Origin: Okeania sp. SIO2G5
GTDB lineage: Bacteria > Cyanobacteriota > Cyanobacteriia > Cyanobacteriales > Microcoleaceae
NCBI RefSeq assembly: GCF_010672305.1
Contig: NZ_JAAHGX010000014.1
Location: 26,698-90,697, forward strand
DNA: 64,000 nucleotides
Direction of reading: 5' to 3'
The notes below the pieces were generated by a model, which worked only from the letters and a program-made list of their open reading frames with translations, did no database searches and was not told where the DNA came from. Shown piece after piece: positions 28,361 through 47,130 of the stretch. The first letter of the stretch is position 1. Each line of letters starts with the position of its first letter. Both the position numbers and the translations under genes were made by a program.

Positions 28361-28807
28361 TTAACCCTTATTTTTAATCATTATTACATCAATAATCTTA
28401 GTAGCTACTGCTTCGGAAATTTCCAAAGCATTATATAACTCATTCAAAAGTTGTTCCTCCTCTTCAGCAAGGTCTCCATCTACTAAAACCAAGTCTGTAC
28501 TAACAGCAAAAACTGTTTCCCTTAACTCCTTTGGAAGTTTAGCAACTGCAGCATCAAACAAAGGCTTAATTTCTTGATTTTTAATCATACCGAGAAGACG
28601 GTCTTGCATTTCTGTCTTACGTTCCTTTGAATAATCACTAAACAGTTCCATGCGAGAGAAAATATTATTAATACCTTGAGATTCACTCTTCGTAATAACA
28701 CCATCAGCAGCAACAGCAATTAAAGCGATCGCTGCAAAAGCTTCTGCCGGTTCTAATTGAATATCAGTAGCTTGTATTGTTGTTGTTCCTTGATCGAAAA
28801 GACCCAT
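28361..28807 (-). CDS. TerB-domain protein (tellurite-resistance TerB-like)
   Basis: 148 aa. …AEAFAAIALIAVAADGVITKSESQGINNIF…VSTDLVLVDGDLAEEEEQLLNELYNAL… shows the typical TerB two-helix-pair acidic motifs. Confidence 0.7.
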   Translation of the reverse strand: MGLFDQGTTTIQATDIQLEPAEAFAAIALIAVAADGVITKSESQGINNIFSRMELFSDYSKERKTEMQDRLLGMIKNQEIKPLFDAAVAKLPKELRETVFAVSTDLVLVDGDLAEEEEQLLNELYNALEISEAVATKIIDVIMIKNKG

Positions 28808-28921: not shown

Positions 28922-30277
28922 TCAATACTTCTCAAAAACTGCTAAATTAGCTTTGAGAAAATCAATAAATTGTCGTGCCGTTCGCCCAGAGCGACCATTA
29001 TATTTCGTAGCCCATTGTAAAGCTTGATAGTCTAAATCTTCAGGATTTAGATTAATTTTTGCCTGTTTTGCCAGATGTCTAACAATTGTTAAATAAGTAT
29101 CCTGGTTAGCAGGTTCAAAAGTTAAAGTTAAGCCAAAGCGATCGCTAAAAGAAAGCTTTTCTTGAACTGTATCCCAATTATGAACCTCATCACTATCTTT
29201 TGGGCGAGGGCGATCGTTAAAAAATTCTCTAATTAAATGCCTTCTATTTGATGTAGCATAGACTACCACATTTGTTGGTCTAGCAGTTAAATTACCCTCT
29301 AAAACAACTTTAAGAGCTTTAAAAGTATCATCATCTTCTTCAAAAGAAAGATCATCTACAAAGATAATAAATTTTTGTGGAATATCGCGTAATTTTTCTG
29401 CAATTAATGGTAAATCTTTTAAGTCTGATTTAGCTACTTCCACTAAACGAAGATTGCGTTGACTATATTCATTTAATAAAGCTTTTATTAAAGAAGATTT
29501 TCCAGAACCGCGACTACCATAAAGTAATACATTAAGTGCTGAATATCCTGCTAGGAGAAATTGTGTATTTTTGATTAAGGTATCTTTTTGAAATTCATAT
29601 CCGACTAATTCTTTTAATTCAACTGGGTCGGGGTAAGTAATAGTAAGTAGTTGACCGTTACGCCATTCAAAGGCAATTGATTCAGCAAATAAACCAGTGC
29701 CATTATGATGATAATGAGTGGCTAAGGTCTCAATGGCATCTGCCCAATTTTCTAATTTTTTTAACTCGTCGTAGATAGCTTCTTTTTGTTGTGATTGTAT
29801 TTCCCACGCAATAGGGGGATTCTCTAATTTAGCTATTGTTTTTACCCACTGACTAATTGTTTTACCACTGCACTGATAAAGATTTTGTAAAATTTGTAAA
29901 TCATGTTTTGCAGCTGCAATTAAATTTGGAGATAGGCTGGTAATATTTATTTTTTGAACTTGTTGACTAAAGGGATTATCATCTTGAATAATCTGAGCAA
30001 TTAGATATTCTTGCCAGGAAATATTTTGACTAGCAATATTTCTAAACCAGTTACCATAAGCTTGAAGGCATTCTATAGCAACTCCATCATTTTTAGACAA
30101 AGATTCTAATAATTGGATAAAAGCTTCACCCACTGTTTTTTTTAGAACAGACTGATATAACAATAGAGATGCTATTTGCTGTTGTAAGTTTTGAATTTTG
30201 GCTAACACTTGGGAACCTAAACAAGACATAATTAATGATATGATTGCCTTATTAAATAAAGGATCAGCACTTAGCAC
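28922..30277 (-). CDS. P-loop NTPase of the AAA-like DUF815 type
   Basis: 451 aa. Walker A LLYGSRGSGKSSLIKALL. Walker B IIFVDDLSFEEDD. C-terminal helical domain. Lies 114 bp upstream of the TerB gene on the same strand. Confidence 0.6.
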   Translation of the reverse strand: MLSADPLFNKAIISLIMSCLGSQVLAKIQNLQQQIASLLLYQSVLKKTVGEAFIQLLESLSKNDGVAIECLQAYGNWFRNIASQNISWQEYLIAQIIQDDNPFSQQVQKINITSLSPNLIAAAKHDLQILQNLYQCSGKTISQWVKTIAKLENPPIAWEIQSQQKEAIYDELKKLENWADAIETLATHYHHNGTGLFAESIAFEWRNGQLLTITYPDPVELKELVGYEFQKDTLIKNTQFLLAGYSALNVLLYGSRGSGKSSLIKALLNEYSQRNLRLVEVAKSDLKDLPLIAEKLRDIPQKFIIFVDDLSFEEDDDTFKALKVVLEGNLTARPTNVVVYATSNRRHLIREFFNDRPRPKDSDEVHNWDTVQEKLSFSDRFGLTLTFEPANQDTYLTIVRHLAKQAKINLNPEDLDYQALQWATKYNGRSGRTARQFIDFLKANLAVFEKY

Positions 30278-33242: not shown

Positions 33243-35621
33243 CTATCGTCGCCAAATTTTAATAGTTCTGTCTTTACTACCACTAGCAATACTATTACCA
33301 TCAGGACTAAAAGTAACTGTATAAATCTCATCTTTATGCCCGGTCAAAGTACTAACTAATTCTCCTGTTTCTAAATCCCATATCTTAATATTATTATCCT
33401 TACTGCCACTAGCAATATATCGACCATCTTCGCTAATATCAACAGATACAACTTCAGCAGTATGACCAAGAATAGTTTTGATTAATTCTCCTGTTTTTAA
33501 GCTCCAAATTTTAATAGTATTATCGTAACTCCCACTCACTATTTTTTCCCCATCTGGACTAATATCAACAGACCTAATTACTCCTTCATGTCCAGTCAAT
33601 GTATTAATTAATTCTCCAGTATATAAATCTTCAATTTTTATAGTTTGATCTGCACTACCACTAACCAATATTCTGCCGTCAGGACTAATAGCAATAGAAT
33701 AAACTACATCTGAGTGATCGGGGAAATTAAAAATTAAGAAACCTGTTTCTAAATCCCAAACTTTAACTGTTTTATCTCCACTAGCACTAGCAATTGTTTG
33801 ATTATCAGAACTCATAGCAACTGACCAAACAGGTGCCCAATGTTCAAATACTCGAAATAATTCTCCTGTTTCCAAATTCCAGATCATTACTCTCCAATCA
33901 TAAGTACCTACCACTAATTTAGTACCATTATTATTCAAAGCAACTGACCAAATTGGAGAATCATCTGCAGCTAATGTGTTGATAACTTTTCCTGTAGGAA
34001 CTTCTAAAATTTTTACCGTTGTGTCTCTACTTCCAGTAACTAAAGTTTTGCCATTAGAACTAAATGCAAGAGTACCTATAGAAGCATTAAACCTAGACAA
34101 ATCTTCAACTTGATAATTCTGCCAATTTATACCTTGTTGACAATTTTGTAAAAGAGATTGAGCTTCAGCAAAAATGCTAGATTTTTCACTAATTAAAGTT
34201 CCTTGATTAATACATTCTTCATAGTTGCGCTCTATGTATAAGTTTTTTACAAAATTAAATTTTGCCGATTCTTGTTCTTGCTGTTGTAATACTTGTTGTT
34301 GACGTAATTGTAAATAATTTTGGAATTTAAGATATCTATATATAGCAAAGATTATTACAATTAAGGTAGCGATAAATCCTAAAATCAACTGCCAGTTAAA
34401 AGATGATTGTTTGTTATTATTGCTAAATATTTTTTTAAATTTAGTAAGTAGAGATTTTGGTAAAACTCTGTTTTCTATTAATTCTATATCTTCTTGAGTT
34501 AGTCCTAAAATTTGCTGTAGACGCTCTAACTCCTGGCGAGTTTCTTGACTAAAAGGATATTCTTCCTGAATCGCAGCTTTTAATGTTTCTTCATATCTTT
34601 CTCCTTTCATCCGATATTTACGGTAAGGATTTAATACTTCATCCTCAATTATTTCCGTTTCTTCCCGGGAGAGTTCTAAACTTTCTCTAAGTTCATCTAA
34701 AATTCTTCTCCCGACAATAGAAATATCTCCTCTATCGCTAGCTCGACGAATAACCTCTTCCCGATAAATTTCTTTATTATCTGTAGCGAAACTTGGAAAC
34801 TCATTAATTTTTTTTAAATCTGCTATAACTTCTGCTGCTGACTGGTAACGTTCGTGAAAGTTATAGCGCACCATTTTATCTAAAATATCTGCTAGAGAAG
34901 TAGAACAATTTGTTAGGTATCGCCAAAAAATCTCTTTTTTTTCACCATTTTCATTATCCTTTAGTTTCGATAATTCGCTGCTAGGCAATCCCGTAATTGC
35001 CTGAATGCCAATCATTCCTAAAGCATAAATATCACTATTGAATTGGGGATTATATTCAAATTGTTCAATTGGCATATATTCCATTGTGCCAATCCTAGCT
35101 GTACGATTTTGCTGACCAATATTAATTTCTTTAACAGCTCCAAAATCAATTAATACTAATTGATTATCCGATTTTCTTCTAATTAAATTAGCAGGCTTAA
35201 TATCTCGATGAATAACACTATTTTCATGCACAAATACTAAAATTTCTAATACTTCATTGAGAATTAAAATTACTTGTTTTTCAGATAGGGGTTTACCTGG
35301 TAATATTTCATTGTCTAAAGATTGACCAGGAATAAAAGATTGAACTAGAAAAAACTCTCGATCTTCTTCAAAATATGCAAGTAGTTTAGGAATTCGATCA
35401 TGTTGAGAAAGCTTTTCTAGCATCTGTGCTTCTTTTTGAAATCGATCGCGAACGATATTAATTAATCTTCGATCATAAATACTTGGTTGCAGATGCTTAA
35501 TAAAACATTGTGCTTCTCCAGGACGACGAATGTCTAAGGCCAGATAAGCATGGCCAATTTCCCCTGATTCAATAATTTTAATAATTTGATAGCGTCCATC
35601 TAAAATATTACCAATCATCAT
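33243..35621 (-). CDS. Ser/Thr protein kinase with TM segment and C-terminal WD40 beta-propeller
   Basis: 792 aa. Kinase subdomains (…HRDIKPANLI…DFG…), a helical linker, a TM helix (LILGFIATLIVIIFAIY), then at least 7 WD40 repeats (…GSRDTTVKI…SGDKTVKVWDL…SGSADQTIKI…SGSYDNTIKIWSL…SGSKDNNIKIWDL…SGSKDRTIKIW). Confidence 0.9.
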   Translation of the reverse strand: MMIGNILDGRYQIIKIIESGEIGHAYLALDIRRPGEAQCFIKHLQPSIYDRRLINIVRDRFQKEAQMLEKLSQHDRIPKLLAYFEEDREFFLVQSFIPGQSLDNEILPGKPLSEKQVILILNEVLEILVFVHENSVIHRDIKPANLIRRKSDNQLVLIDFGAVKEINIGQQNRTARIGTMEYMPIEQFEYNPQFNSDIYALGMIGIQAITGLPSSELSKLKDNENGEKKEIFWRYLTNCSTSLADILDKMVRYNFHERYQSAAEVIADLKKINEFPSFATDNKEIYREEVIRRASDRGDISIVGRRILDELRESLELSREETEIIEDEVLNPYRKYRMKGERYEETLKAAIQEEYPFSQETRQELERLQQILGLTQEDIELIENRVLPKSLLTKFKKIFSNNNKQSSFNWQLILGFIATLIVIIFAIYRYLKFQNYLQLRQQQVLQQQEQESAKFNFVKNLYIERNYEECINQGTLISEKSSIFAEAQSLLQNCQQGINWQNYQVEDLSRFNASIGTLAFSSNGKTLVTGSRDTTVKILEVPTGKVINTLAADDSPIWSVALNNNGTKLVVGTYDWRVMIWNLETGELFRVFEHWAPVWSVAMSSDNQTIASASGDKTVKVWDLETGFLIFNFPDHSDVVYSIAISPDGRILVSGSADQTIKIEDLYTGELINTLTGHEGVIRSVDISPDGEKIVSGSYDNTIKIWSLKTGELIKTILGHTAEVVSVDISEDGRYIASGSKDNNIKIWDLETGELVSTLTGHKDEIYTVTFSPDGNSIASGSKDRTIKIWRR

Positions 35622-42897: not shown

Positions 42898-43151
42898 ATC
42901 TAATAATATAGCTCCAAACTAGGTTGATCTGAAATAACTTCTATTAAACTAATATGATATTGATAGAATCAGCAACTGGCAAAAAATCCAAAATCATTGA
43001 GATTCTTGTTATTATTTATAGCAGCATTTTATGACAAATGGAATAAATCGTAAATTATTTTTTTTAAGTTCTTTATATCCTTTTAATATTACTATTTAAT
43101 ATTACTATATTCTAAATAAATTGGATTTTAATTGAAAATTAAATATCTTAA

Positions 43152-43178
43152 AGAGACGTTCCGCCAGAACGTCTCTAG
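43152..43178 (-). terminator. Perfect 9-bp-stem hairpin (AGAGACGTT-CCGCCAG-AACGTCTCT) 20 nt downstream of the small minus-strand ORF; U-rich on the minus strand afterwards
   Basis: Direct reading. Confidence 0.45.
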
Positions 43179-43198
43179 AAAACTTGTATTGTTGTTAA

Positions 43199-43339
43199 CT
43201 AGCCAACTGTATAAGCGGTACTAAGTCCCCACAAAAGAAGCAAGACTATTGCACCTAGAATCACAATCGCAGAAATGGCGATCGCGCTGGGAGTATCTGC
43301 TCCCTTAAATTTCATTATTCCACGGTCAAGGTCTGACAT
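43199..43339 (-). CDS. small (46 aa) single-TM protein, hypothetical
   Basis: MSDLDRGIMKFKGADTPSAIAISAIVILGAIVLLLLWGLSTAYTVG. Followed by a terminator hairpin. Not matched to a known PSI/PSII small subunit. Confidence 0.35.
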   Translation of the reverse strand: MSDLDRGIMKFKGADTPSAIAISAIVILGAIVLLLLWGLSTAYTVG

Positions 43340-44309
43340 AATATTTATCTCCTAATTATGTTTTTGATTTTAGCTAAGATTTTCTGGAAATATGTCTATA
43401 TTGCTACTATATTTTCTCCCATTTCTGTTTATGATTTGTCTCTAATATTAAAATAATAATAAAGATTGGCAATGGTCATATTTTAGGCCGTTTATAAATT
43501 AGATAATTCTATGATTTTGTCATCAGTGTTAATTAATTATTGACTGAGATCAGACTCAAATTGTTTCCTAATCTAATCAGGGGTGTTAAAAAAAGGGAAG
43601 ATACTTCAGAATATGATAATTATTCTGGTAATTCTGAGCAGGTTAAAACTGAGGAGGAATCTGAGCAAATTAATGAAGTTTTGCATGTTTAAACAGCAGA
43701 TTCTCAGGAGTTATCTCAAGATATTAGTTTGCTCAGGGATTTTTTATACTTATTTGTACGGTTCTCTTTACAATCCAAGGGCTTAATTTACTTTTTAAAT
43801 GTTCGGGAAATTAAGAAGAATGGATTTTATGTTTTTTGAACGCAGCACATAAACAACCAGAATTAATGTTGATGATGATATTATTTATTCCAAGTATCAC
43901 AGTTTCATTGTTTGTGATTTACTGGCTAATACTTCAGTTTATTAAAGCTCTGGCTTTGCTTAAGCAAAAGTTTCTTGAAATATACTTCTCCGACATTAAC
44001 TTTAATCCCTTGTAATACCTGGGAAAAAACTTAGTTTCCGGAGATGAATAATCCAGAAATAGGAAGGTAAAAAACATCAAAAAATTCCCGAAAAAAAAAT
44101 GATATAAATGTTAGGTAGATTGCCTTCTCTAAATATAGAAGCTAGAAATAAGAATTGTTTAGATAGATCGGTTCTGACAATATGTAGATAACGACTGTAC
44201 AGATCTCTACATTTATAATGATAGCTTTTTGTCGAATATCTTTACTCACTAATAACTTTGATTCAGGTATAATAATAATATCTCAATAAAAGATTAAATA
44301 TATATACCT

Positions 44310-46925
44310 ATGGATACTGCAAAAATTAGCACCGAATCAGTAAAGTTACTATCTATTATTACTGGCAATAAACTAAGCAAAAGAGATATTAATCCACCAG
44401 TATTGTTTCTGGCAAATTTAGTCATCATATTGATAGGTGTTATTTATGCAGATGGGAAAGTAGCAGAGGAAGAAAGAGCAAGATTAAAAATTACCCTCCA
44501 TAAATTTATCCCGCCGAAAGGAAATATCTTGGAATTAACTAAGTTAATGATTAAAGGAGTATCAAAGCAACATCTTTACAAAAAAATTGAGGCGATTTTG
44601 ACATTAACTTATCCTCTGTCTCCTCCAGAAAAATTGTTATTAATTTGCTTTGGTTATGAGATGTCTGCTGCTGATGGAAATATTGATGTACGAGAAAAAA
44701 AATATTTGGAAATTATTAGTCGTAAGTTAGGCATTAAAACCAAACATTTGCAGGTATTAGAAGCAGGATTTACTCATCAAGAAAATTTCGCCCATAAGGC
44801 AATGGAGGAAGTGGCATATTTACTCAATCCAGCACGTTTCCATCAGTTAGATAATATTTTTGTCAAAGCTGCTAGTGAAATGCTAAATTCACTCTTACCC
44901 AACTACAATCAAAATCAAAACAAAAAAAATCAGCCTCAACAAACTGTTGTTTATCAAAGATTAAAAGAGTTTCAAAAATATAAACAACAATTGCATAATC
45001 TTTGCTCCGAAATTTATCAAATAGTTACAGTATCAACTGAGAGAGATTTACTGCCCAATACTTTAATATCTGAAGTAAATAAAATATTAAAAAAATTCCA
45101 ATCCCAAAAATTCCGAGTTGCAGTGGTTGGAGAATTTAGTCAAGGTAAATCAACCTTATTAAATGCTTTGTTAGGAGAAGAAATTCAACCAGTCAGAGAA
45201 ATTCCTTGCAGTGGCACAGTTACAGTTTTAAAATATGGCGAACAAAAGCGGGTAATTTGTCGTGATAAAAATGGTAATGAGATAGAAATTTCTTTAGCAG
45301 AATATCAGGAAAAATCTACTATTTCAGAATCAGCAGCTTTAGGAGATATGAGTCAAGAATTAGCACACTCAGAGATAGAATCAATATTTTTTGAACATCC
45401 AGATTTAGAGTTATGTAAAAGTGGGGTAGAAATTATTGATTCTCCTGGTTTAAATGAAAATCCTAACCGTACAGCTATTACTCAAAAACTATTAGAAGAT
45501 ACTGATGCAGTGATTTTCTTAACTAATGCTTCTCGACCATTAACTCAAGGGGAACAAGAGTTAATTCAAAGTATAAAGTTGCAGTTAAATGGGAATCAAA
45601 TTAATTTACCTGCAGATAATTTATTTGTGTTGGTGAATTTTCTAGATTTGGTCAGGAGTGAAAAAAGCCGTCAGCAAATTAGGCAACGATTAGAAAATTT
45701 TGTATTTGGTGAAAAACCGATTATTTCTACTAATAGTCATTTACATTTTATTTCTGCTCAAGCTGCTTTAGATGCAATTTTAGAGAGTGAAGAAAATGAA
45801 TATTTAACCTCTTTTAATAATTTTACAAAGTCCATAGAAAAGTTTCTGACTATTGAGCGAGGTGTTGTGGAATTTCAGCAGTTTGTAACTAAGATGAATA
45901 GTTTAATTTCTGAGTCAATAAAAGGATTAGAACAAGCAGAAAAAATTTTAGATGGTCAGGTGTATTTGCCGGAAGAGGCAAAACAGAAAATATTGGAAAA
46001 AATAGGGGAAGCTAGTGAAGGGGATGTGAAAATTTTATCAACTACTGAAAAACTGAAAGATAAGAGTATTAAAAAAGTGGCTGAAGCATGGGTTCAATGG
46101 ACAGAAGGATTGAGCGATCACTTATCTGAAAAAATTAATGAATGGGATTCAGAACATTCACCTCTTTGGGATAAGGAAAAAGTTATCAAAGATTATGCTG
46201 AAGGATTTACAAGTTCTCTTTCTACAGAATTAGAAAATTGGGGTAATACAGAAGTCAAGAAAATTGTGGTGAATAATTTACAGATTTTAAGTAAAGAAGT
46301 TTGTCAAAACTTAGAGGTTGTTAGAATGAATTTACAAGAGGTTGATGAGCAAATAAATTCTAATTTGAATGAGCAATTTAATTTGGCAATTAAAAATATT
46401 AAAGTAGATGGATTAGATATAAATTCTGTAATTAAGTTAGAAGAGTATGATGATAATGGAGGTGCTTTATGGGAAGGATTACAATTAGGTAGTCTCACGG
46501 CAGGTGCATTATTTATGTTTACAGGATTGGGAATTTTGCCTATTATTATAGCTGGGGGAGCAGTGGCTTTGATTAGCTCATTTTTTGGTATTGGTGGTGA
46601 TGAAGAAAAAGCAGATATGAAAATTAAACAACAAGTTTATAATGTGGGTTTTCAAAAGTTTCAGGAGTCTTCTGAAGAAATACTTGATAAGGTTTGTGAC
46701 AATATTGCTGAAGTTTTCTATACTCAGTTTAAATCTGTAAGTACGGTAATTGAACAGGCAATCTTGCTTTACGAAAATATCCTGGAACAACAAGATAAAG
46801 CTCACAAAGAAACTCAGTCACAACTACAAGTTGAAAAAGTATTTATATCCACTAAACAACAGCAACTTAAACAAATACAAAGCCGACTTGAAATAATCTT
46901 AACTCAAATTAGTGGGAGTAAATAA
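44310..46925 (+). CDS. TerB-domain to dynamin-family GTPase fusion (bacterial dynamin-like protein with N-terminal TerB module)
   Basis: 871 aa. Residues about 1-150 are TerB-like (…VIYADGKVAEEERARLKITL…SAADGNIDVREKKYLEIISRKLGI). Then dynamin G1 VAVVGEFSQGKSTLLNALLG, G2/T-loop …SGTVTV…, G3 DSPGLNE. A long helical stalk follows, then a hydrophobic paddle LGSLTAGALFMFTGLGILPIIIAGGAVALISSFFGIGG and C-terminal helices. Confidence 0.75.
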   Translation: MDTAKISTESVKLLSIITGNKLSKRDINPPVLFLANLVIILIGVIYADGKVAEEERARLKITLHKFIPPKGNILELTKLMIKGVSKQHLYKKIEAILTLTYPLSPPEKLLLICFGYEMSAADGNIDVREKKYLEIISRKLGIKTKHLQVLEAGFTHQENFAHKAMEEVAYLLNPARFHQLDNIFVKAASEMLNSLLPNYNQNQNKKNQPQQTVVYQRLKEFQKYKQQLHNLCSEIYQIVTVSTERDLLPNTLISEVNKILKKFQSQKFRVAVVGEFSQGKSTLLNALLGEEIQPVREIPCSGTVTVLKYGEQKRVICRDKNGNEIEISLAEYQEKSTISESAALGDMSQELAHSEIESIFFEHPDLELCKSGVEIIDSPGLNENPNRTAITQKLLEDTDAVIFLTNASRPLTQGEQELIQSIKLQLNGNQINLPADNLFVLVNFLDLVRSEKSRQQIRQRLENFVFGEKPIISTNSHLHFISAQAALDAILESEENEYLTSFNNFTKSIEKFLTIERGVVEFQQFVTKMNSLISESIKGLEQAEKILDGQVYLPEEAKQKILEKIGEASEGDVKILSTTEKLKDKSIKKVAEAWVQWTEGLSDHLSEKINEWDSEHSPLWDKEKVIKDYAEGFTSSLSTELENWGNTEVKKIVVNNLQILSKEVCQNLEVVRMNLQEVDEQINSNLNEQFNLAIKNIKVDGLDINSVIKLEEYDDNGGALWEGLQLGSLTAGALFMFTGLGILPIIIAGGAVALISSFFGIGGDEEKADMKIKQQVYNVGFQKFQESSEEILDKVCDNIAEVFYTQFKSVSTVIEQAILLYENILEQQDKAHKETQSQLQVEKVFISTKQQQLKQIQSRLEIILTQISGSK

Positions 46926-47018: not shown

Positions 47019-47130
47019 AACAATTAATAATTAATAATTACCTCTCCTTAAAAAGAAGAGGATTGACGCTGAAGGAATTTTTTTTCTTTTTTCTCCTTTA
47101 AAGGAGAGGCTTTTAATCTTAATTATTCGG
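47019..47130. mobile_element. MITE-like repeat family AATTAATAATTAATAATTACCTCTCC…AAGGAGAGG…CTTAATTATTCGG (copy 1)
   Basis: Internal inverted repeats (GGAGAGG/CCTCTCC) and AT-rich AATTA termini. Further copies at 48415-48506, 48760-48902 and 55187-55300. AATTATTAATTATT tracts occur at 24095-24135. Confidence 0.5.

Follow-up and report, generated by a model that had tools for sequence, protein, structure and literature searches.

A predicted TerB-bearing subfamily of BDLP-type dynamins with an orphan partner gene in cyanobacteria

A 64,000-nt stretch of the genome of Okeania sp. SIO2G5 (contig NZ_JAAHGX010000014.1, positions 26,698 to 90,697 of the forward strand; hereafter the window, whose numbering is used throughout unless another locus is named) carries at 44310..46925 (+) a complete gene encoding 871 amino acids (aa) plus a stop codon. 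These limits, claimed by an earlier reading of the letters alone (the sequence-only reading), are those given by the list of open reading frames (ORFs) and by the translation, and the start codon is the first ATG after a stop codon. The product is predicted to be a GTPase of the bacterial dynamin-like protein (BDLP) type, on the branch that also holds Nostoc BDLP, IniA and mitofusin, with a TerB module of about 195 aa placed before the first neck helix; it is referred to here as TerB-BDLP.

Two Pfam matches lie within the protein. TerB (PF05099) matches at aa 37-147 and scores 38.5 bits (E = 1.6e-9; gathering cut-off 24.4 bits), with profile positions 4-113 of 118 aligned, so that the paired acidic TerB pattern noticed in the N-terminal region withstood the profile search that had been proposed as its check. 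Dynamin_N (PF00350) follows at aa 270-421 and, at 99 bits (E = 4e-28), exceeds its cut-off of 27 bits. Dynamin models of NCBIfam, among them DynA, LeoA and CrfC, match far below threshold (78.9 bits against a cut-off of 1600), indicating that the protein has no orthologue among the named families, DynA included.

Read from its N-terminus, the protein begins with a conserved helix ahead of TerB (aa 1-28, 44310..44393; AlphaFold2 helix at aa 8-18 with a predicted local distance difference test score, pLDDT, of 84-88); the N-terminal alignment shows no variation there at S15, G19, K21 and L22, and mean column identity is 0.74. The TerB domain itself (aa 29-155, 44394..44774) is modelled as seven helices at pLDDT 75-92 and holds two D-G-x5-E acidic motifs, D48/E55 within ADGKVAEEE (aa 47-55) and D122/E129 within AADGNIDVREKKY (aa 120-132). 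Further conserved helices follow (aa 156-200, 44775..44909), with L171, L172, P174, F177, L180, D181 and F184 invariant; together with aa 1-155 they make up the TerB module, which recurs as a unit in GTPase-less and in tandem-TerB proteins. The first neck helices (aa 216-265, 44955..45104; AlphaFold2 helices 216-244 and 250-265) lead into the GTPase domain (G domain) and align to the N-terminal neck of BDLP with both phmmer and Foldseek. The dynamin-type G domain (aa 266-495, 45105..45794) aligns with Nostoc BDLP 2J68 and has intact G1 (GEFSQGKST, aa 274-282), G3 (aa 377-380, within DSPGLNE at aa 377-383) and G4 (NFLD, aa 443-446) motifs and a switch-I P-C-S at aa 299-301; G1 and G3 are thus where the sequence-only reading had seen them. 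A helical stalk or trunk (aa 496-725, 45795..46484; long AlphaFold2 helices 497-547, 555-611 and 622-682) ends in an uncharged, Gly/Ala-rich stretch of 38 residues, LGSL...GIGG (aa 726-763, 46485..46598), with Kyte-Doolittle values above 1.4 throughout, a putative membrane paddle or hairpin at the stalk tip. The remaining residues (aa 764-871, 46599..46922; AlphaFold2 helices 765-833 and 836-869, pLDDT 79-94) return as C-terminal stalk and neck helices in the BDLP topology. All of these features lie on the forward strand.

An AlphaFold2 model built from an alignment of 65 sequences has a mean pLDDT of 79 and a predicted template modelling score of 0.57, and its poorly predicted regions are limited to a linker (aa 201-210), a switch loop (aa 295-300) and aa 701-762. 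The best Foldseek match in the PDB is the closed form of Nostoc BDLP (2J69; E = 2e-19, target template modelling score 0.67, 709 columns), followed by 2J68, which is also the closest solved structure by sequence (E = 4.6e-26), and the likeness to Nostoc BDLP proposed earlier therefore stands at both levels. Next in the structural ranking come IniA, the Campylobacter DLP1/2 pair (5OWV/5OXF), SynDLP, mitofusins, Fzo1 and LeoA. Model and Foldseek alignment alike show a closed BDLP fold whose neck and trunk are assembled from helices on both sides of the G domain. For the N-terminal region, a profile of the first 200 residues matched the TerB-like structure 2OU3 weakly and over half of the domain (E = 0.0045), and a phmmer search of the PDB with the single N-terminal sequence gave no match. 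Structure prediction, which had been suggested for the N-terminal module and the paddle, gave seven helices at pLDDT 75-92 for the TerB domain in the first and left the second at pLDDT below 50.

Two hydrophobic stretches occur in the protein, at aa 29-47 and aa 726-763. The first is assigned to the first TerB helix, since it is helical in the model (pLDDT 84-91) and falls within the TerB region, the Pfam match beginning at aa 37. With no transmembrane segment between TerB and the G domain, both are expected to be cytoplasmic. The second is the Gly/Ala-rich segment that had been likened to the BDLP paddle, and it does occupy the paddle position; all family members examined have an equivalent of 37-44 uncharged residues with 28-50% Gly+Ala.

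Residue conservation was assessed in 65 full-length homologues, the most divergent of them about 48% identical. Of the acidic residues in TerB, D48, E55 and D122 never vary and E129 is kept in at least 90% of sequences, and in the GTPase G274, G279, K280, S281, T282, D377, G380, N443 and D446 are invariant; conservation of these motif residues across the whole set rules out chance. Column identity is highest in the G domain (0.81), followed by TerB (0.74) and the stalk (0.61), so by this measure TerB is as well conserved as the remainder of the protein, which supports its importance. Ratios of nonsynonymous to synonymous substitution rates (dN/dS) of 0.21-0.32 against the Okeania, Dapis and Trichodesmium orthologues indicate that TerB-BDLP is under purifying selection.

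The window protein is 100% identical to one from an Okeania hirsuta locus (L001). Seven other Okeania loci were recovered; the ORF has its full length in six of them, and in the remaining one (L008) only query residues 158-871 are matched. A large protein database returned 947 matches. Among the 120 of these that were listed, 119 have precomputed PF05099 and PF00350 annotations, 115 are 840-910 aa long, and all come from cyanobacterial or unnamed sources except one metagenome-assembled genome (MAG) labelled Methylacidiphilales. An exhaustive search of 50%-identity representatives gave 150 clusters at E <= 1e-30, of which about 35 are full-length TerB-bearing dynamin-like proteins (TerB-DLPs). 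In a scan of one genome per GTDB species, relatives were found in 509 species; the best 80 carry cyanobacterial labels, except for two MAGs labelled 'uncultured bacterium' and one labelled Sericytochromatia. These 80 are mostly filamentous (Okeania, Dapis, Trichodesmium, Nostoc, Calothrix, Lyngbya, Planktothrix, Microcoleus and Coleofasciculaceae) and also include Waterburya and Chlorogloea. Identity to the window protein is 89-93% in Okeania, 74% in Dapis, 68-70% in Trichodesmium and about 50% in Nostocales, a drop with taxonomic distance that suggests vertical inheritance.

Relatives bear the name 'dynamin family protein' at NCBI and 'uncharacterized tellurite resistance protein B-like protein/GTPase' at JGI. 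The sequence-only reading knew of no characterisation of the domain combination and had named, as something that would count against it, an architecture already common and annotated; the architecture is in fact common, and with the paired Pfam annotations and a JGI label naming both domains that objection largely applies. For genome annotation the gene is accordingly a routine finding, being already labelled 'dynamin family protein'. What survives is that the fusion, though widespread and already labelled by domain, is apparently unstudied as far as literature searches showed: full-text searches joining TerB or tellurite with dynamin found no paper on a TerB-dynamin fusion, and Anantharaman, Iyer & Aravind 2012 lay outside their coverage, so that a prior mention is possible. 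TerB (in Bunzi and Shango) and dynamins (in Eleos) appear as separate defence systems (Millman et al.), and in preprints (10.1101/2022.05.11.491447 and 10.1101/2025.09.30.679545) TerB proteins are called amphitropic and put forward as modules of 'membrane surveillance'. The survey of cyanobacterial dynamin-like proteins (DLPs) by Jilly et al. 2018 (PMC5827413) never mentions TerB. Its Supplementary Data Sheet 1 holds 121 cyanobacterial DLPs, with Npun_R6512 and Npun_R6513 as the only entries for N. punctiforme and no Hapalosiphon MRB220 entry near the partner gene AMR41_16405 (the partner family is described below); an 855-aa TerB-DLP of Nostoc punctiforme (ACC79321.1/B2J872) is missing from that table. 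These gaps suggest that the clade was overlooked by the sole published survey of cyanobacterial DLPs.

Clustering the ORFs of 80 related loci, with counts made on 77 of them, identified a single gene family strongly syntenic with TerB-DLP. An ORF of 420-470 aa lies directly upstream on the opposite strand, head-to-head, in 61 of the 77 loci, with a median gap of 142 bp. Its product, here called the partner, has no Pfam match and one hydrophobic segment near aa 90-110. Database relatives number 952; the 120 listed are all unnamed or 'hypothetical protein', apart from a few longer calls labelled acyl-carrier-protein, and every named source among them is cyanobacterial. A mediocre AlphaFold2 model of the partner (pLDDT 62) had no significant neighbour in a structure search. 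By sequence and synteny these genes would constitute a TerB-bearing BDLP subfamily, usually inherited together with an orphan partner that probably acts at the membrane side of TerB-DLP in most lineages.

In the window only a remnant of this gene is present. At 43402..43572 (−), 57 codons of its C-terminal part were found by tblastn (65% identity over 57 aa to a partner fragment at a Microcoleaceae locus, L017; E = 7e-17), interrupted by four in-frame stops, and no intact ORF covers them. This decayed remnant, a pseudogene, accounts for part of the 1.4-kb 'empty' region (42898-44309) upstream of TerB-BDLP; both the conserved divergent gene and its remnant had escaped the sequence-only reading. 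An intact partner is missing from every locus of Okeania, Dapis and Trichodesmium; most of these loci retain only C-terminal fragments of 59-185 aa, and those of Trichodesmium show no match at all. With the DLP intact at dN/dS 0.21-0.32 and the partner decayed, the DLP evidently works without the partner in this clade.

The reverse loss was found as well. At least two clusters at 50% identity lack the whole G domain, represented by P0208 (538 aa; Symploca sp. SIO2E6, locus L087, 1489-3105) and P0209 (505 aa; loci L085, 6001-7518, and L086, 1688-3205). In P0208 the stalk, paddle and C-terminus (30% identical) follow immediately on a TerB module of 195 aa (41% identical). Both genes sit at the orthologous locus, divergent from an intact partner that is 56% and 52% identical, respectively, to the Lyngbya partner, and the same TerB-only Pfam pattern is seen in P0231 and P0257. 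Taken together, the GTPase-less and partner-less lineages indicate that TerB, stalk and partner can outlast the motor, and that the motor protein can outlast the partner. Relatives of 600-680 aa that seemed to be without TerB were set aside as probably truncated gene calls, the one cluster checked holding a member of 849 aa.

More distant relatives extend the architecture. A clade at 23-27% identity (860-976 aa), all of whose members come from metagenomes, keeps both TerB and Dynamin_N; two of its loci (L082, 2594-9775, and L081, 527-10590) are metagenome contigs of 51-54% guanine plus cytosine (G+C). Here TerB-DLP is preceded on the same strand by a gene of 419-428 aa, with a 530-aa TerB protein and a radical-SAM gene also upstream in L082, and in L081 a McrB-like AAA_5 gene and a gene for a caspase-family peptidase lie in the vicinity of the TerB-DLP (P0227). 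The upstream genes match the cyanobacterial partner in size and in the position of the hydrophobic segment; as candidate partner homologues they were rejected, hhalign giving a probability of 2% and aligning only the hydrophobic Gly/Ala stretch. Separately, four proteins of 377-396 aa (P0216, P0240, P0241 and P0256) were seen to have two TerB domains, some with weak DUF533 matches, and one copy 28-38% identical to the DLP module of aa 1-195, which suggests that the module circulates independently of dynamin. A 1313-aa protein of Pantanalinema rosaneae CENA516 (P0408) has precomputed Pfam matches to trypsin-like peptidase (PF13365, PF00089), TerB and Dynamin_N and may be a protease-TerB-dynamin fusion.

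Around the TerB-BDLP gene itself the intergenic gaps are long, 1.4 kb upstream and 0.56 kb downstream, and its G+C content is 31.8% compared with 35.8% for the window. A terminator-like hairpin was noted downstream at 47090-47109 (+), and a promoter scan of this AT-rich region gave scores no better than those of shuffled sequence. The nearest sizeable ORFs, within about 7 kb on either side, encode a DEAD-box helicase, a MiaB/RimO-type radical-SAM enzyme, an OmpA-family protein, a NUDIX hydrolase and an ABC exporter, and one further ORF there has no Pfam match; judged by their predicted products, the flanking genes are housekeeping genes. No ter operon genes occur among the ORFs in this interval and no ter gene among the recurrent neighbour families inspected in the 80 loci, and a phmmer search of the 64-kb window with the G domain found only the gene itself, hence no second dynamin. 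PADLOC matches on the neighbours are weak and generic.

The stand-alone TerB gene that had been pointed out 14 kb away beside an ATPase is real. It lies at 28361-28807 (−) (PF05099, E = 1e-6, 29.5 bits), on the same strand as a DUF815 AAA ATPase gene at 28922-30277 (−) (PF05673, E = 1.5e-96) and separated from it by 114 bp; an exact-sequence look-up of the TerB protein found no record. The hinted link to TerB-BDLP was not borne out, for the two TerB sequences have no detectable similarity and the stand-alone gene adjoins a different ATPase. Elsewhere in the window, 33243-35621 (−) encodes a protein of 792 aa that combines a Ser/Thr kinase domain (Pkinase, E = 8e-34) at its N-terminus with a seven-blade WD40 propeller at its C-terminus.

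Among characterised proteins, Nostoc punctiforme BDLP (Npun_R6513; 2J68, 2J69, 2W6D) is the best match in both sequence and fold. The two share a G domain with an extended GKSTxLNALxG P-loop, neck and trunk helices drawn from both sides of that domain, and a hydrophobic segment at the trunk tip, in the window protein a putative membrane segment. They differ in that BDLP lacks a TerB module, is shorter by about 180 aa, shows only 17-18% identity in structural alignment and has another DLP gene in tandem (Jilly et al. 2018, PMC5827413), whereas the window gene is solitary; moreover, the hydrophobic stretch of the window protein is a continuous run of 38 uncharged residues. IniA (6J72, 6J73; the second-best fold match, Foldseek E about 1e-12) and Bacillus subtilis DynA are likewise BDLP-type dynamins tied to membrane maintenance under stress, and DynA has been linked to phage resistance, as cited in the defence-system literature. 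Neither has TerB, however, and DynA is an internal fusion of two DLPs. Mitofusin, Fzo1 and plant FZL have a BDLP-like fold (Foldseek E about 1e-9) with a hydrophobic hairpin between stalk helices, but are eukaryotic organelle proteins without TerB and enter the comparison only as truncated G-domain/HD1 structures.

With TerB proteins (PF05099; 2OU3; Bunzi, Shango and Dionysus) the N-terminal module shares the repeated D-G-x5-E motif and, as modelled, an all-helical domain, and a membrane-proximal sensor role has been proposed for them in the literature. Unlike these, which are fused to helicases or pore-formers or stand alone, the window TerB is fused to a mechanochemical GTPase and is flanked on both sides by conserved helices to form the 195-aa module. 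A similar design logic is found in DjlA, in which a TerB-like N-terminal domain precedes a DnaJ effector acting at the inner membrane; there the effector is a J domain, not a dynamin GTPase.

The reading that we consider best is that the protein is a TerB-gated membrane repair or remodelling dynamin, with a probability of about 0.5, and the earlier description of it as a 'TerB-regulated or TerB-targeted' remodelling GTPase is plausible on the domain evidence. In such a mechanism the hydrophobic hairpin would anchor or insert the protein in the plasma or thylakoid membrane from the cytoplasmic side, and GTP-driven dimerisation of the G domains, with a transition of the stalk from closed to open, would deform the membrane in repair, fusion or fission, as proposed by analogy with BDLP, IniA and DynA. 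The TerB module, which is predicted to adjoin the hinge between G domain and neck, could bind a cation or small ligand through D48, E55, D122 and E129, or could drive reversible membrane association, and would in this way be the input switch through which membrane or ionic stress releases or recruits the dynamin. The divergent 420-470 aa orphan protein, with its hydrophobic segment, may be the membrane-side partner in most lineages; since the partner is a pseudogene in the window genome, the DLP would there act without it. Retention of the 1-195 module even in derivatives that have lost the G domain supports a role for TerB.

That same retention can be read differently. TerB might be a passive structural element, providing dimerisation, tethering or partner docking in a BDLP that is in other respects ordinary and constitutive: after loss of the GTPase the module still accompanies the stalk and the partner gene, as would be expected of docking, isolated TerB proteins are predicted to homodimerise in Dionysus, and the tandem-TerB proteins carry a module of the DLP type. 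A scaffold does not readily explain why three of the four acidic residues are invariant and the fourth nearly so in 65 sequences, a pattern that points to a specific binding site, nor why Okeania keeps the module intact although the partner is gone, and we regard this account as doubtful. The decay of the partner also raises the question of whether the window gene is itself a functionless relic on its way to loss, and the four in-frame stops of the partner remnant and the somewhat low G+C content of the gene would fit. Such a relic is very improbable, given the full-length ORF in the window and in all but one of the other Okeania loci recovered, the retention of every catalytic and TerB motif residue, and dN/dS values of 0.21-0.32 across Okeania, Dapis and Trichodesmium, all of which are without an intact partner.

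A function in anti-phage defence was also weighed, in which the protein would be a single-gene relative of Eleos (LeoA/LeoBC), with TerB detecting the membrane perturbation caused by phage and the dynamin sealing or remodelling the membrane to block infection or delay lysis. TerB occurs in the validated systems Bunzi, Shango and Dionysus and dynamins in Eleos, the PADLOC models for LeoA (E = 1.8e-21, aligning to aa 371-866) and LeoBC (E = 1.2e-12) match the protein, and the distant P0227 is encoded near McrB-like and caspase-family genes. The PADLOC matches, however, reflect only shared dynamin ancestry; Eleos requires an operon of two or three consecutive DLP genes, located in defence islands, whereas the window has a single DLP in 64 kb, among housekeeping genes. 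Identity declines with taxonomic distance and only the orphan partner is syntenic, so that inheritance looks vertical rather than that of a mobile defence island. Because both context and inheritance pattern argue against a defence island, this explanation is considered unlikely.

Several observations weigh against a TerB-gated remodelling dynamin and temper the probability given to it. The natural GTPase-less versions imply that part of the function of the family may not need GTP hydrolysis, and a dN/dS of 0.2-0.3 is not especially low. The D/E pairs are a putative metal site, assigned from general knowledge of TerB-like domains. At pLDDT below 50 the model of the paddle region does not distinguish a paddle from a true transmembrane hairpin, which the uncharged run of 38 residues could form. 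Finally, the partner has no recognisable fold or family, which makes its proposed role a guess.

Structures and in-vitro activities exist for Nostoc BDLP, DynA, IniA, LeoABC and SynDLP; to our knowledge, none of the five has a defined physiological trigger. In the present protein a sensor-type TerB domain is fused directly to the motor. We tentatively suggest, as an idea that we think has a rather small chance of being right, that TerB-BDLP and its orphan partner form an unrecognised, largely cyanobacterial module for the response to membrane damage, with TerB as an autoinhibitory sensor of a cation or ligand (for example, Ca2+ influx through a breached membrane, or phage-induced vesiculation) that switches the dynamin from closed to open. 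If true, this would give prokaryotes an equivalent of Ca2+-triggered membrane repair, and a bacterial dynamin would for the first time have a defined input signal; the lineages without the GTPase or without the partner would then show that sensor, scaffold and motor are functions that can be separated. Those lineages, with the orphan partner, are in effect ready-made comparative experiments, and the presence of the subfamily in hundreds of cyanobacterial species, including the genetically tractable Nostoc punctiforme, offers an experimental handle. The family could also inform the biology of TerB itself, which appears in several anti-phage systems without a known mechanism.

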